Under the pieces are notes generated by a model. It saw only the letters and a list, made by a program, of their open reading frames with translations. It did not search any database and was not told where the DNA came from. A stretch of 40,440 nucleotides of DNA from Candidatus Methanoperedenaceae archaeon (GTDB lineage Archaea > Halobacteriota > Methanosarcinia > Methanosarcinales > Methanoperedenaceae). Where the stretch lies: the NCBI GenBank assembly GCA_963753595.1, contig CAVWCX010000010.1:1-40440 (forward strand), in the 5' to 3' direction. A program made the position numbers and the translations under genes. Of the stretch, positions 6,524-21,493 are shown piece by piece; within the stretch, counting starts at the first letter, position 1; each line of letters opens with the position of its first letter.

Positions 6524-7855
6524 ATGGAAAATCATAAAGATAAGTTAAGATCAGTCGTTGAAGAGTACTGGAGAAAAGAACTTCCAGACACGAAAGAGAG
6601 AGCTATCAGTCTGAAAATAGAAAGCGATCTTATAAATGATATTGTAGGGCCAAGAAGGGCTGGAAAGACTTATTTAATGTACTTTACCATTAGAAAACTT
6701 CTCGATACCGGGATAGAAAAAGAAGCCACTATATACATAAACTTTGAAAACAGGAAACTTTTGCCTTTAACCCCGGAATATTTCAATGACCTGATAGATG
6801 TTATCCATTCCAAAAGACTTTTTGAAAAACATACGACTGTATTTATTTTCCTTGACGAAGTCCAGAGGATCGGGGACTGGGAAAAATATATACGAAGCAT
6901 ATACGACGAATTTAAAGGTAAAATAAAGATTTTCATTTCCGGTTCAACTTCAAAATTGACAGAATCCGAATTGAGTTATTTGCTTACAGGCAGGCATTTA
7001 ACAACACATGTCTACCCATTGAGCTTCAGGGAATTCTTATCATTCAAAAACTGTTATATAAAAGAATATTTTATTGAAGAGGATATCGCTTTGATAAAAG
7101 AATATTTAAGGGAATACTCAGAGTTCGGGGGTTTCCCGGAAGTCACTCTACTCCCGTATGGTAAAGACGAACTGATACAGACATTATTTTCCGATATAAT
7201 AAACAGAGACATACTCCCGAAAGCAAAACGAAGGGGTGAAATTATTGATGACCTTGCGTATTTTTTATGTTCAAACTCAGGAAAACTGGCAAGTTTCACA
7301 AAGTTAACAGGCACGCTGAACTCGATGGGAGTTAAAGTATCAGTACCTACTTTTGAAAAATACTTCTCGATTATGAAAGAGGCGTTCCTTTTCTTTGATC
7401 TTACTATATATTCATACAAAGTTAAGGATCAAATTCAGTATCCCAGAAAGATTTATTGTATGGATCCAGGTTTTATTAATTTTTCCGGGTTTAAATTTTC
7501 ACAGGACCGGGGAAGATTAATGGAAAATCTGGTTGCGATAGAACTTCAAAGGACAAAGTCCAAAAGTCCATTAATTGAAATATTTTACTGGAAGGATCAT
7601 CAGGAGAGGGAAGTAGATTTTGTTATCAGGGAAGGTCTTACGGTAAAGCAGCTTATCCAGGTGACAAATGCTTCAAGCAGGGAAGATATACCAAAAAGAG
7701 AGATCACAGGTCTGTTAAGGGCAGAAGAAGAATTTAAATGCAGCAATTTGCTTGTAATAACCTGGGAGTATGAAGGAGAAGAGATAGTAGATGGTAAGAA
7801 AGTAGTTTATACGCCATTATGGAAGTGGCTGTTAGACGTTGGGGTCAAGGGGTAG
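6524..7855 (+). CDS. AAA+ ATPase (AAA_14 + DUF4143-type C-terminal domain)
   Basis: Walker A GPRRAGKT, Walker B FLDEVQ, GGFP, LMENLV, EVDF, PLWKWLL; last codons come from the inserted TnpB element. Confidence 0.9.
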   Translation: MENHKDKLRSVVEEYWRKELPDTKERAISLKIESDLINDIVGPRRAGKTYLMYFTIRKLLDTGIEKEATIYINFENRKLLPLTPEYFNDLIDVIHSKRLFEKHTTVFIFLDEVQRIGDWEKYIRSIYDEFKGKIKIFISGSTSKLTESELSYLLTGRHLTTHVYPLSFREFLSFKNCYIKEYFIEEDIALIKEYLREYSEFGGFPEVTLLPYGKDELIQTLFSDIINRDILPKAKRRGEIIDDLAYFLCSNSGKLASFTKLTGTLNSMGVKVSVPTFEKYFSIMKEAFLFFDLTIYSYKVKDQIQYPRKIYCMDPGFINFSGFKFSQDRGRLMENLVAIELQRTKSKSPLIEIFYWKDHQEREVDFVIREGLTVKQLIQVTNASSREDIPKREITGLLRAEEEFKCSNLLVITWEYEGEEIVDGKKVVYTPLWKWLLDVGVKG

Positions 7856-7965
7856 AGAACCCTGCGCCCTTCGAGGGCGCAGATGAATCGTACCCCTGCT
7901 TATAGATTAGTTTCACACCACTCTATCATAAGGGCTATATGTATTCAGAACTATGTCTATGCTGC

Positions 7966-9129
7966 ATGAAAATAACGTATCAGTTCAGGATATACCCTAC
8001 CAAAAATCCAGAGGTTATCATGAATAGAACTCTATCTACATGCAGAAAACTCTATAATGAAAAACTTGCAGAACGAAAGAAGCAAGCAGAGCTTAATCGG
8101 TTGAGAAAATCATTTGATGTTTTTCCGTGGGGAAAACCGGAATGGATAGACTATTATGAGCAGAAACTTGGTTTAACAGCTACCAAAACACTATTTCAAA
8201 AAGAAGTCCATTCTCAGGTACTCCAAGATGTGATAAAAAGGGTTGATCGAAGTTTCAAGAATTTCTATATGGGTTTCGGCTATCCACGGTTTCAAGGAAG
8301 AAATAGATACAATAGTTTCACGTATCCCCAATCGGGTTTTGAACTGAAAGATGGAAAACTCATTCTCTCTAAGATCGGGGCTATCAAGATCGTCCAGCAC
8401 CGGGAAATCGAAGGTAAAATCAAGACCTGTACCATCAAGAAGGATATTGACCAATGGTATGTTTCCTTTTCATGTGAAATCGAAGAGCATATCCCGGTTG
8501 AAGTCAAAACCAAAACAGGAATAGACGTTGGATTAATCGACCTGATAACCCTGAGTAACGGGGAACAGGTCAAACCGCCGAAGTTCCTGCGGGAATCAGA
8601 GGATAAGCTGACACAGGAACAGAAGCGGTTAAGCCGGAAAAGGAAAGGGTCAGGGAAAAGGAATAAGCAGCGGGTGATAGTATCAAAAGTACATAGAAAA
8701 ATCAGGAATCAAAGAAAAGATTTTGCTCATAAGACCAGCAAAGTTCTTGTGGATTCCTATGACCGTATCGTTTTTGAAGATTTGCAAATAAAGAACATGG
8801 TGCAGAACCATCATCTTGCCAAATCCATATCCGATGCAGGCTGGCATCAATTAATGCAATTCACGAAATCCAAGGCAGAATGTGCCGGGAAAACAGTTGA
8901 ATTCGTTAATCCGGCTGGAACATCCCAAACCTGTATCTGCGGATATCCTGTACCGAAAGACCTTTCAGTGAGGATACATCGGTGTCCTTCCTGTGGTCTT
9001 GTCATGGGAAGAGATCAGGTATCTGCAATATTAATCGAAAATAGATGTACGGTAGGAACTACCGGAATTAACGCCCGTCAAGGATATCTCAGCGGAGTAT
9101 CAATGCAGCGGGACGCTCCGAGGCTTTAG
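7966..9129 (+). CDS. tnpB: RNA-guided endonuclease TnpB
   Basis: TYQFRIYP N-terminus, RuvC residues GIDVG / VFEDL / RDQVSA, zinc finger SQTCICG..CPSCG; ATG 7966 preferred over 7939. Confidence 0.93.
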   Translation: MKITYQFRIYPTKNPEVIMNRTLSTCRKLYNEKLAERKKQAELNRLRKSFDVFPWGKPEWIDYYEQKLGLTATKTLFQKEVHSQVLQDVIKRVDRSFKNFYMGFGYPRFQGRNRYNSFTYPQSGFELKDGKLILSKIGAIKIVQHREIEGKIKTCTIKKDIDQWYVSFSCEIEEHIPVEVKTKTGIDVGLIDLITLSNGEQVKPPKFLRESEDKLTQEQKRLSRKRKGSGKRNKQRVIVSKVHRKIRNQRKDFAHKTSKVLVDSYDRIVFEDLQIKNMVQNHHLAKSISDAGWHQLMQFTKSKAECAGKTVEFVNPAGTSQTCICGYPVPKDLSVRIHRCPSCGLVMGRDQVSAILIENRCTVGTTGINARQGYLSGVSMQRDAPRL

Positions 9130-10858
9130 AGGCTGTCCGATAATTAACTGAAAAACTCTCCGATTTTTCCATAATTCCAAATTATAATCAAGCCCATTGC
9201 TTGCGAAATAATTTCAAAACATTTATATCATACAAATACAGTTTTTAAATAAATATGACTTTCTATAAAGACCTCAAAGACCAGGAACTGCTCTTACCTC
9301 CAAACATTCGTGATATGATACCAAAAAATCACATCTGCCATCTGGTTGATAAAATAATCCAGAATATGGATATATCTGATATCGAAAAGGAATACGAAGG
9401 AGCAGGACACCCCGCATATCATCCAAAACTCATCCTCAAGCTTCTGATATTGGGTCAAATAGATGGAGTACGTTCATCAAGGATAATAGCAAAAAATGCT
9501 AGAGAGAACGTGGTATACATTTACCTTGCAGGTCTTCTCCAACCTGATTTCAGGACGATAAGCGACTTTCGGAAAAACAATCTTGAAATGGTCAAATCAT
9601 CATTTCATGAAGTTGTAAAATTCGCAAAAGATCTTGGCATGGTATCTCTTGGTCACATATGCATTGATGGAACAAAAATAAAAGCCAATGCATCAAATCA
9701 CAGTGCAGTAACAAAAGATGATTTTTTAAAATTGAAGGAACTCGTTGAAAGAGAACTGGAAGAAGGCATCAGAATAGACGGGGAAGAGGACAGTATCCAT
9801 GGTGATAAGAATATCGATGAGCTGCCAGATAACATCTTTGACAAAACGATAGCGGAAAAATTGAAAGAGAAATATCAGTCAGGGAGCAAAGAACAAAAAG
9901 AAAAAATCAAGAAACAGGTTGATAAGATCGAAAAAGAAATCGAAAAATCAGAGAGTGCCATCAGTGCTACTGATCCTGAAAGCAGGTTCATGCCAAATAA
10001 CAAGAAGGTCACTGAATATTCCTATAATCCTCAGATAACAGCGGATTCTTCTTTTGGGATAATCATTTCCAACGATGTCACGTCAGAGGTAAGGGATGCA
10101 AATCAGCTTCAGCCTCAGATAATACAGGCAGAAGAGAATGTTGGAACCCTTCCGGAAGGTACGAAGGTGAGTGCTGATAATGGATATTCAAGCAGCAAGA
10201 ATCTCAAATTCATGAAGAAAAAAAAGCTGGATGGCTATATCCCGGATGAAAAAACGGCATCAAACCTGAACAAAAATGAAGGAAAACCAGAAAAACCATT
10301 CGGTAAAGAGAATTTCGATTATGACCCGATAGAAGATTGTTTCATTTGCCCCAATAATCAGAAACTGACGTTCCGTTTTGAGTATGTGGATATTGCCAAA
10401 AACAGAAATGTGCGGATTTATAAAGGCACTCAGTGTAAGCAATGTCCTGATCGTAAAAAATGTTCAAAGAACTCTCGGGATGGAAAAGTGATCAAGAATT
10501 ATGAGGGGATGGAAGAGGAAAGAAGGAAGATGGCTTCTAAATTGATGTCAAAAGAGGGAGCATTGACATATCAGACGAGGAAAAAGGTCGCAGAGTGCAT
10601 CTTTGGTCATATCAAGAGGAATCTTGGGTTCAGGGAATTTCTGTTGAGAGGGATTAATGGGGCGAAAATTGAGTTCAATCTTACCTGCATTGCTTCAAAC
10701 CTGAGAAGAATGTGGAACTTTTTGAATGGATTTATTGAAGTAAGATGTTAAATTGGAGAAGAAGTATCGTTTTTTTTTGTTTGTCTGAAAAATTAGGCAA
10801 TTATTGCTGAAACATTGCTTGAATAAACTGTATTTGATATCAAATGTCGGTCAACCTC
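9129..10858 (+). mobile_element. IS1182-family insertion sequence
   Basis: Imperfect terminal IRs gaggctgtccgataatt / gaggttgaccgacattt; 5-bp target duplication CTTTA at 9124-9128 and 10859-10863. Confidence 0.92.
9255..10751 (+). CDS. IS1182-family DDE transposase
   Basis: G.PAYHP, PDFRTISDFR, IDGTKIKANAS, TDPESR, ADNGY, Cys cluster, RK..AECIFGHIK. Confidence 0.93.
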   Translation: MTFYKDLKDQELLLPPNIRDMIPKNHICHLVDKIIQNMDISDIEKEYEGAGHPAYHPKLILKLLILGQIDGVRSSRIIAKNARENVVYIYLAGLLQPDFRTISDFRKNNLEMVKSSFHEVVKFAKDLGMVSLGHICIDGTKIKANASNHSAVTKDDFLKLKELVERELEEGIRIDGEEDSIHGDKNIDELPDNIFDKTIAEKLKEKYQSGSKEQKEKIKKQVDKIEKEIEKSESAISATDPESRFMPNNKKVTEYSYNPQITADSSFGIIISNDVTSEVRDANQLQPQIIQAEENVGTLPEGTKVSADNGYSSSKNLKFMKKKKLDGYIPDEKTASNLNKNEGKPEKPFGKENFDYDPIEDCFICPNNQKLTFRFEYVDIAKNRNVRIYKGTQCKQCPDRKKCSKNSRDGKVIKNYEGMEEERRKMASKLMSKEGALTYQTRKKVAECIFGHIKRNLGFREFLLRGINGAKIEFNLTCIASNLRRMWNFLNGFIEVRC

Positions 10859-10928
10859 CTTTAGCCCGGAGCAGTTCACTATGTTCTTAATTAATGAAAG
10901 AATAATTGTGCTAATGATTTTTTTGTTC

Positions 10929-11333
10929 TTAAATTTCATCGATCGATCTAACATCGATTTCTTTCACTCTCTTGAGATCTTCATCTTGTGTAATTAATTT
11001 GCATTTGTGGATATTGCAGGACGAGGCGATCATAGCATCAGGAAGCTTTATTTTATATTTCGCTCGTATTTTTGCTGCATCTTTCGCTATGGTAATGTCC
11101 ACATCTGTTATAGTAAGATTGTTTATAGCCTTCATATCTGTAAGGAACATCTCACCTTTCTTAGATTCGTTTTCTGCATAAAATCCGCTTAATATCTCCG
11201 AAACACAAATTACCGAAGTATAGCCTGCATGTTTTCCATTATGAACATCTAAAAGAAGTTTTTCTGCAAGTTGCCAGTTCTCCTCTTTGTTTAAGATAAC
11301 TAAAAAGATATTTGTATCAAGGAATATTCTCAT
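10929..11333 (-). CDS. vapC: PIN-domain toxin (VapC-like)
   Basis: MRIFLDTN, SEIL, LPDAMIA, LITQD; ATGA overlap with the antitoxin stop. Confidence 0.9.
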   Translation of the reverse strand: MRIFLDTNIFLVILNKEENWQLAEKLLLDVHNGKHAGYTSVICVSEILSGFYAENESKKGEMFLTDMKAINNLTITDVDITIAKDAAKIRAKYKIKLPDAMIASSCNIHKCKLITQDEDLKRVKEIDVRSIDEI

Positions 11334-11563
11334 TTTTCTTCCCATTCACTTCGAATTTTATGCTGGTATCTTAAACCCGGACCAAAAATGCCTTTTCCGA
11401 GACCAACAAGATTAGCCACAGGGTTCATGGGGGCTTTTTTAAGTACAACCTTTTCATCTTCTAAATCAAAAACTATCTTCTCTCCAGCTGTAATGCCAAG
11501 TATTTCTCTGAATTTCTGGGGTATAGTTATCTGCCCTTTCTTTGTTATCCTTCTATATTCCAT
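11330..11563 (-). CDS. AbrB/MazE-fold antitoxin (VapB-like)
   Basis: ITKKGQITIPQKFREILGI..G swapped-hairpin signature; directly upstream of the PIN gene. Confidence 0.9.
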   Translation of the reverse strand: MEYRRITKKGQITIPQKFREILGITAGEKIVFDLEDEKVVLKKAPMNPVANLVGLGKGIFGPGLRYQHKIRSEWEEK

Positions 11564-21387: not shown

Positions 21388-21493
21388 GCGGTTGTGGTCT
21401 AGTGGCTATGACAGGGGCTTCCCAAGAACTTTTGCATGAATAGCAAAGATCAGGAAACAGCCTCTAACCCGGGTTCAAATCCCGGCAGCCGCA
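21388..21493 (+). tRNA. tRNA-Gly(CCC) with a 34-nt intron at position 37/38 (21425-21458)
   Basis: Acceptor GCGGTTG/CAGCCGC+A; anticodon stem GGGGC/GCCTC; T arm CCGGG-TTCAAAT-CCCGG; BHB central helix TTCC/GGAA with 3-nt bulges; CCA not encoded. Confidence 0.95.

Follow-up and report, generated by a model that had tools for sequence, protein, structure and literature searches.

The window analysed here, a stretch of 40,440 nucleotides forming positions 1 to 40,440 of contig CAVWCX010000010.1 in the assembly GCA_963753595.1 of a Candidatus Methanoperedenaceae archaeon, carries two nested mobile elements: an IS200/IS605-type element encoding TnpB and, within the loop of the hairpin at its right end, an insertion sequence (IS) of the IS1182 family. 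The genome to which it belongs (G000; 2.89 Mb, 37 contigs, 92% complete) is referred to by contig number below, the window lying on C10. In IS200/IS605-type TnpB elements, the guide portion of the guide RNA, termed omegaRNA, comes from the flank past the right end. The position of the inserted IS can be read against the following features, all given in window coordinates.

7832-7835: TTAG, the left flank of the TnpB element, resembling, and presumably representing, a transposon-associated motif (TAM).
7836..7938, + strand: left end of the TnpB element, placed by an alignment of 15 left ends, with a boundary accurate to a few bases.
From 7862, + strand: perfect left-end hairpin, CTGCGCCCT-tcg-AGGGCGCAG, from the hairpin listing of the genome.
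7939..9129, + strand: tnpB open reading frame (ORF), 396 amino acids (aa) as listed, with a likely true start at ATG 7966 and the stop codon TAG at 9127-9129.
8960..9128, + strand: putative omegaRNA scaffold, the 5' part of the conserved structured right-end region, from sibling identity and RNAalifold.
9115-9123, + strand: 5' arm of the terminal hairpin, GCTCCGAGG, which ends the 5' part of the putative scaffold.
9124..9128, no strand: left copy of the target-site duplication CTTTA, made up of the loop and the closing C of the hairpin.
9129..10858, + strand: IS1182-family insertion sequence, 1730 bp, with ends set by flank comparison of 11 copies and imperfect terminal inverted repeats, GAGGCTGTCCGAT... 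and ...GTCGGTCAACCTC.
9255..10751, + strand: IS1182-family DDE transposase gene, 498 aa, with a frame open in all 11 copies.
10859..10863, no strand: right copy of the target-site duplication CTTTA.
10864..10879, + strand: displaced 3' hairpin arm GCCCGGAGC (10864-10872) and terminal AGTTCAC (10873-10879), the end of the TnpB element.
10880..10899, + strand: would-be omegaRNA guide flank, tatgttcttaattaatgaaa, positioned relative to the right-end boundary.

At the left junction, the 5' arm and loop (...gacGCTCCGAGG-CTTTA, the latter at 9124-9128) run directly into the start of the IS, GAGGCTGTCC, at 9129. The right terminus of the IS, ...GGTCAACCTC, falls at 10858 and is followed by the second CTTTA, the 3' arm and AGTTCAC, after which, beyond 10879, the flank is A+T-rich. 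A preliminary description of this DNA had placed an IS1182 element in the loop of a TnpB right-end hairpin and had restored that hairpin by removing 9129-10863; it is correct base for base, the removed segment comprising the IS and one copy of the duplication, and the placement is borne out by the junction sequence and by the ends of sibling elements.

The identity of the host element rests on its protein and on its ends. TnpB scores 307 bits against the NCBIfam model NF040570 (cut-off 100), matches the Pfam entries for OrfB_IS605, the TNB domain and the helix-turn-helix, and aligns with the structure of ISDra2 TnpB (8H1J) with an E-value of 1.7e-49. In that alignment, the residues D, E and D, the first of which is D196, fall on the three RuvC positions of ISDra2 (presumably those numbered D191, E278 and D361), and both CxxC pairs are present. 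With its RuvC D-E-D triad and zinc-ribbon/TNB domain, a subterminal hairpin at each end and a constant terminal motif beside a variable flank, and lacking terminal inverted repeats, the element has the make-up of the TnpB-only (IS1341-like) IS200/IS605 elements, and it has the IS1341-like layout in carrying no tnpA. Like the TnpB elements ISDra2 and IS608, it combines a full RuvC triad with two subterminal hairpins and a covarying 3' region that overlaps tnpB; unlike them, it has no tnpA, its stop codon lies in a hairpin loop and its scaffold is here cut in two.

The TAG at 9127-9129 survives the insertion only because the IS begins with G, so that the third base of the stop is the first base of the IS; it would persist in either orientation of the IS, both ends of which read GAGG from outside. 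The retention of the stop codon and of all three RuvC residues, as claimed beforehand, is thus upheld. The same loop, CTTTAG (9124-9129), holds in addition to the stop a TTTAG word seen beside the left ends of several copies. Across 15 aligned left ends, agreement begins just upstream of GTCAAGGGGTAGAG, placing the start of the element at about 7836, and the flanks to its left read TTTAG, TTTAT, TTTAC or TTAG, which we would guess to be the TAM. The presence of TTTAG in both the loop and the left flank may be a coincidence or may be part of end recognition.

Same-family TnpB sequences were found by tblastn at nine genomic places, and eight of their 3' ends were compared: four meet the IS at one and the same position, three continue without interruption and one, on C26, is divergent. 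The uninterrupted right ends, at C37:77272, C15:7082 and C30:6716, carry CTTTAG, CTTTAA or CTTTCG between the two hairpin arms, continue with AGTTCAC and then diverge from one another, and the copy on C26 (65% identical) likewise presents a covarying hairpin followed by AGTTCAC. The right-end region is present in 22 of 52 other genomes of the wider family. All of the 22 right ends inspected, 20 from related genomes and two from this genome, are uninterrupted, and their likeness stops after (T)AGTT(T)CAC. Because uninterrupted siblings and relatives end there and then diverge, the last base of the TnpB element is 10879, with the would-be guide beginning at 10880. Both positions had been predicted from a TCAC at 10879, and the siblings and the 20 relatives' copies do end at this same TTCAC.

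The structure of this region is conserved as well as its boundary. RNAalifold applied to 19 homologues predicts 34 pairs, 13 of them with compensatory double changes, and the arms of the terminal hairpin covary at seven of ten pairs, which marks the hairpin as a selected structure. Between TnpB copies, identity over the ~100 bases that precede the loop is 96/97 to 99/100, with 97-99% to C7c, C37b and C15; for these three copies, blocks further upstream match at 73-96 of 100 positions. Such a conserved region fits a putative guide-RNA scaffold combined with an end recognised by a transposase, both of which overlap tnpB at its 3' end. Rfam holds no family matching the right-end region, in the window or in the siblings.

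The inserted element is a typical IS1182-family IS in its layout: 1730 bp, a single 498-aa ORF and ends, deduced from the 11 copies, that read GAGGCTGTCCGA... and ...TCGGTCAACCTC. Members of this family have a total length of about 1.3-2 kb in the ISfinder range. The ORF (9255-10751) scores 402.2 bits against NCBIfam NF033551 (cut-off 270) over residues 8-488 of 498, and its Pfam matches are DDE_Tnp_1_6, DUF772 and DDE_Tnp_1. The 11 copies in the genome are 99.4-100% identical and retain the 498-aa frame throughout, so that, by this measure of identity, the burst is recent; given so recent a burst, the intact tnpB ORF is weak evidence of retained function. Close relatives of the IS occur in only three of the 52 other genomes, namely a full copy in G047 (88% aa identity), a full copy in G031 (68% aa identity) and a broken one in G004, and the expansion is therefore specific to this genome.

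Comparison of the flanks of all 11 copies assigns their targets to three classes: four TnpB right ends, six loops of other G+C-rich hairpins whose tails resemble those of IS200/IS605 elements, and one site within a gene. Three of the TnpB right-end insertions (C10, C37:67559 and C7:136387) share the CTTTA site, and the fourth, on C36, has these 5 bp duplicated around an IS in reverse orientation (TAAAG). Four of the seven available same-family TnpB right ends are thus occupied, at an identical loop position. Since each insertion has about seven such sites to meet in 2.9 Mb, the chance that four of 11 would fall in seven given 5-bp sites is, by our arithmetic, negligible. Among the remaining hairpins, one type follows Y1 tnpA genes and was hit on C34 and at a site now split between the left flank of C1:31157 (C1a-L) and the right flank of C1:38241 (C1b-R), both with a TTAA duplication; the partial tnpA on C1 stops 44 nt before the IS. 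A 55-nt double-hairpin repeat that terminates in GTGACTGC was hit three times, at C7:16957 (C7b), at C35-left/C1:31157-right and at C1:38241-left (C1b-L), and the copy at C7:13868 (C7a) lies in another hairpin followed by TTCAC, whose intact sibling is found at C36:186392. At the eight sites whose two flanks belong together, 4-5 bp are duplicated and both arms are kept. The suspicion that this IS prefers such hairpins, raised in the preliminary description, is strongly supported by the full set of flanks: the targets are not random, 10 of the 11 sites being hairpin loops and four of the seven sibling right ends being hit at the same base.

The tnpB genes beside the four IS copies share 77-99% protein identity, and the 5' arms of their hairpins differ in the bulge (GA, GC or GT). 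Because the hosts are only 77-99% identical while the ISs are more than 99% identical, the four insertions are independent hits. It would be extremely improbable that an IS-carrying TnpB element was instead copied as a unit, with four identical junctions descending from one event: the tnpB genes of C10 and C36 are 98.7% identical, as such copying would have it, but precisely these two hold the IS in opposite orientations, the other two hosts have 77-85% TnpB identity with ISs above 99%, the bulges differ as described, and the phylogenies of IS and host element are not congruent with equal divergence. A further possibility, that the inverted-repeat arms are long terminal repeats of the IS itself rather than target DNA, has next to no probability. 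A naive inverted-repeat finder did carry the terminal repeats on into flanking DNA at several loci, but copies of one and the same IS have different arms, and intact IS-free hairpins stand at homologous places.

Insertion might also have been random, with copies surviving only where they do no harm, for instance in selfish elements and intergenic repeats. Ten of the 11 copies do lie outside host genes, and it is generally common for one IS to be nested in another; selection, however, cannot yield insertion at one phosphodiester position shared by four separate 1.3-kb elements, nor does it explain the loop-centred positions elsewhere and the recurrence of the same rule in other genera, and we regard the absence of targeting as highly improbable. 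In our judgement, it is very probable that an IS1182-family IS, active and recently amplified, chooses short palindromes or hairpins rich in G+C as its targets and hits the right ends of TnpB elements repeatedly.

A chance control and a survey of relatives bear on this reading. When 40-nt windows were folded with DNA parameters and loop-centred positions with a folding free energy (dG) <= -4.5 were counted, 145 of 6000 random genome sites (2.4%) qualified, compared with six of 10 reconstructed IS sites; seven of those 10 sites lie in a loop at all. An order-level search of 284 genomes yielded 16 loci with transposases at 43-50% aa identity, in eight genomes of two other genera, and with the relatives in G047 and G031, 18 related loci were examined. 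In G047, the duplication TTCCA lies in a loop, as does TTAA in G031. A duplication of 4-6 bp stands between inverted-repeat arms at 14 of the 18 loci, three of these 14 sharing flanks and perhaps representing one event; the 16 loci at 43-50% identity, counted on their own, include 13 with such a duplication. Examples are ATCCCCGCAG-CAAG-CTGCGGGGAT, ACCCCACCT-TGAA-AGGTGGGGT and ACCCTACCT-TTTA-AGGTAGGGT. Two loci (L049 and L055) have no duplication, and in L050 and L028 an IS end escaped the search pattern, the sequence of L028 nevertheless showing both ends and a TTAA duplication.

Twenty sites were aligned on their duplications, leaving out three redundant TnpB right-end sites and the related loci that were unusable or duplicate. 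Positions -8 to -5 are C in 17, 18, 15 and 15 of the 20 sites, and positions +5 to +8 are G in 13, 15, 18 and 16, while the four inner arm positions are variable yet mostly complementary. The target is C4-N4-(4-5 nt)-N4-G4, and the general property of these ISs, conserved among the relatives, is loop targeting of hairpins with C and G tracts. The natural archaeal insertions thereby provide a precise rule, a 4-nt loop between C4/G4 arms in which the loop alone is duplicated.

The alignment can also be read in terms of duplex DNA, with a transposase dimer recognising a palindrome through a pair of half-sites (CCCC at 5-8 bp from the cut, on both sides); no hairpin would then be extruded, and arm pairing would be incidental. 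The C4/G4 tracts are the only conserved letters over the 20 sites, the non-hairpin site C1c keeps its left half-site ACCCCGGAT, and the duplication of an identical 5 bp in both IS orientations would be expected of a symmetric dimer on duplex DNA. Half-sites alone, on the other hand, leave unexplained that 24 strict CCCC-N12/13-GGGG sites are empty, that a degenerate tract with good pairing is hit repeatedly (as in the TnpB right end, CTCC...GGAG) and that the inner 4 bp vary between sites with complementarity mostly kept; in passages of PMC4923244 and PMC5678879, moreover, the targets of IS1272, another IS1182-family element, are alike in structure and not in sequence. We consider purely duplex recognition unlikely, although it is the alternative that deserves the most weight.

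Several observations also weigh against the targeting of hairpin loops as such. Of the 24 unoccupied strict sites, 10 have paired inner arms, and the perfect 9-bp left-end hairpin of the TnpB element (3-nt loop) was never hit, so that the C4/G4 rule is not sufficient. At three of the 10 reconstructed sites (C37, C7a and C1a/C1b), the duplication falls outside a loop in the minimum-energy fold, their hairpins being imperfect or G-T-rich; their homologues do fold. The copy at C1:160751 splits a gene for a multi-haem protein, where the hairpin is only weak, with a left half-site that does fit the target rule. The hairpins hit in the related genus are not tied to IS200/IS605 ends. Finally, three IS copies (C1a, C1b and C35) have mismatched flanks, and the right flank of C35 lies beyond the contig end; their pairing is inferred and assumes recombination between copies, for which it speaks that re-pairing the flanks restores perfect duplications and the arm pair of C34 and G031.

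Targeting of hairpins by the IS, as preferred here, would proceed in a few steps. A transposase dimer would engage the C4-N4-(4-5 nt)-N4-G4 palindrome, possibly extruded as a cruciform; the DDE transposase would make a staggered cut at the base of the loop and join the IS ends on each strand, and repair would then duplicate the loop only, 4-5 bp. Within this genome, the best fit would be found in the hairpins near the ends of IS200/IS605-type elements and in hairpin repeats related to them. Perfect hairpins rich in G+C are few here (44 rows of 1834), and the concentration on IS200/IS605-type ends probably reflects which hairpins are available.

Most of what is documented on hairpin-directed transposition in the IS1182 family concerns one staphylococcal element, and there the stem-loop is deleted. 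According to passages of PMC4923244 and PMC5678879, IS1272 and TnSha1 of staphylococci use hairpin or inverted-repeat targets, often terminators, that share no primary sequence, and a given hairpin is hit more than once, with the element facing either way; on palindromic targets in the IS1182 family, both papers refer to Siguier et al. 2015. For IS1272, the account in PMC5678879 includes partial or complete deletion of the stem-loop and no target duplication, and pathway c of its Fig. 13 draws a loop-only duplication as a hypothetical outcome. The IS in the window resembles these elements in its family, its hairpin targets, its repeated hits and its use of both orientations. Unlike IS1272, it is archaeal, shows a C4/G4 arm signature and leaves both arms in place, the duplication being confined to the 4-5-bp loop; with the arms kept and a duplication present, its insertions do not have the form of IS1272-type stem-loop replacement. 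The loop-only outcome matches the pathway that had previously only been drawn as a possibility. The system is thus of a known kind, the hairpin-targeting IS1182 elements, with a loop duplication, an arm signature and victims predicted to bear guide RNAs as its distinct features.

A second group of ISs with comparable habits targets repetitive extragenic palindromic (REP) sequences and comprises IS1397 and ISKpn1 (IS3), IS621, ISPpu9 and ISPa11 (IS110) and others of IS4, IS256 and IS5. Five IS families with this habit are listed in PMC1525189, and the IS1182 family is not named among them. REP palindromes are described in the abstract of PMC3333891 as resembling the subterminal hairpins of IS200/IS605. 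Like the REP-targeting ISs, the IS in the window inserts specifically into short repeated palindromes; unlike them, it strikes functional TnpB ends, severing a predicted guide-RNA gene and not a passive repeat. Insertion of IS1397 into a loop is accompanied by a duplication of 3-4 bp. Among the papers listed by literature searches on IS1182 with IS605 and Methanosarcina and on interrupted TnpB right ends, none describes the insertion of an IS1182 element into IS200/IS605 ends.

For the TnpB copy in the window, the insertion leaves tnpB and the 5' part of the putative scaffold on one side, with the 3' arm, the TTCAC end and the would-be guide flank 1.73 kb away. Transcription of a contiguous scaffold-plus-guide omegaRNA would presumably be impossible, and a Y1 transposase would lack the folded right end that it needs. 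Because the split separates scaffold from guide, we infer from the model of omegaRNA biogenesis that no functional guide RNA is produced from this copy. The siblings on C15 and at C37:76100 have open tnpB frames, intact right ends and scaffolds 98-99% identical over the last 100 bases, and with scaffolds so nearly identical over the last ~100 bases it is conceivable that the orphaned nuclease is loaded in trans with sibling omegaRNAs, in which case it would be directed to the siblings' sites. The mobility of the element, in turn, had probably already been lost, since the assembly, 92% complete, contains only three matches to Y1 tnpA (PF01797), all partial or stop-containing: one on C24 with two TAA codons, one on C36 with a 107-aa frame and one on C1 with a 91-aa frame. 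The earlier proposal that the insertion disables mobility is, in view of these remnants, largely moot.

One selfish element thus repeatedly cuts what is predicted to be the guide-RNA gene of another, which bears on the decay of TnpB/OMEGA systems and on the origin of orphan tnpB genes. It matters for annotation, too, as a tnpB gene whose ORF is intact may lack its own guide, and IS-interrupted right ends would escape searches for omegaRNAs. More speculatively, this archaeal IS1182 lineage could be a specialised transposon parasite that recognises the very folded C-tract/G-tract hairpin on which IS200/IS605 transposases and TnpB guide RNAs rely, uses such ends as safe harbours, disarms RNA-guided homing nucleases and leaves TnpB reliant on sibling guides; we hold this to be improbable on the present evidence. 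If true, OMEGA systems would have a natural antagonist in it, and structure-dependent DDE transposition with loop-only duplication a clean model.

Outside sequence data contain both forms of the right end. Contigs from the RNA libraries of two bioreactor studies carry a relative's tnpB through the position equivalent to 9129 into an uninterrupted 3' arm and TTCAC, such contigs giving no RNA ends, processing or level. A related IS, with the same 3' arm after it as far as the position of 10879, is present on one DNA contig from soil (1762 nt, 64 differences). Since the two kinds of contig carry one form each, uninterrupted and interrupted right ends both exist elsewhere. No sequencing run found by the search reaches half of the sampled words, the highest share being 0.35.

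Derivatives and repeats related to these hairpins are found elsewhere in the genome and in its relatives. A gene-less miniature TnpB derivative at C37:67423-67558, of a type like the palindrome-associated transposable elements (PATE-like), joins 17 nt of the left end to the terminal ~135 nt with the right end; it is one of the four hosts hit by the IS at a TnpB right end, and a similar internal deletion is present in L078. The ~55-nt double-hairpin repeat has the form ...GAGCATCC-nnn-GGATGC-CyCCGAAT-TCT-ATTCGGGGG-T-nGTGACTGC, as at C1:36630-36700 (- strand), C36:106393-106441 (- strand) and the loci L098-L126. It occurs in 1-5 copies each in 22 of the 52 other genomes of the genus, resembles REP elements and has no match in Rfam. 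That it is an IS200/IS605 end could not be shown: a Y1 tnpA lies upstream in only three of 25 loci, and in one of these three a DUF433/DUF5615 gene pair stands in between.

In genus g30, relatives of the IS (43-47% aa identity to that of the window) have hit another repeated element five times. This element, aatcaaagttgcgctggcgc-ACCCCGCTG-caag-CAGCGGGGT-attcgactgaaatg, is present in L052, L055, L057, L060 and L062, in three genomes. The IS of L062, with tnpB upstream, had been taken for an insertion in a TnpB right end, an assignment withdrawn because the hairpin resembling a TnpB end lies ~100 nt before the hairpin that was hit.

On C1, the IS copy at C1:160751-162480 is the only one inside a host gene. 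That gene, C1:158556-163842, is very large and has 13 CxxCH haem-binding motifs, five before and eight after the IS. The copies at C1:31157-32886, C1:38241-39970 and C35:1-1730 have swapped target flanks, which implies recombination between copies and, as part of it, an inversion of the ~5 kb separating the two inverted copies on C1. Inspection by eye places ribosomal protein S12 and S7 genes on C35 and an EF-2 gene on C1, so that the IS cluster seems to sit in the conserved S12-S7-EF-2 neighbourhood.

Around the nested elements of the window, an ORF for an AAA_14/DUF4143 ATPase (6524-7855, + strand) has its final few codons and TAG stop inside the TnpB element, which starts at about 7836; because the last codons of that gene sit within the element, the latter must have landed in its 3' end. 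Directly to the right of the TnpB element, a PIN-domain protein (10929-11345, - strand) and a MazE/AbrB-type antitoxin (11330-11563, - strand) form an overlapping toxin-antitoxin pair. Further downstream, a tRNA match at 21388-21493 (+ strand) spans 106 nt against a 71-position model and is probably an intron-containing archaeal tRNA.

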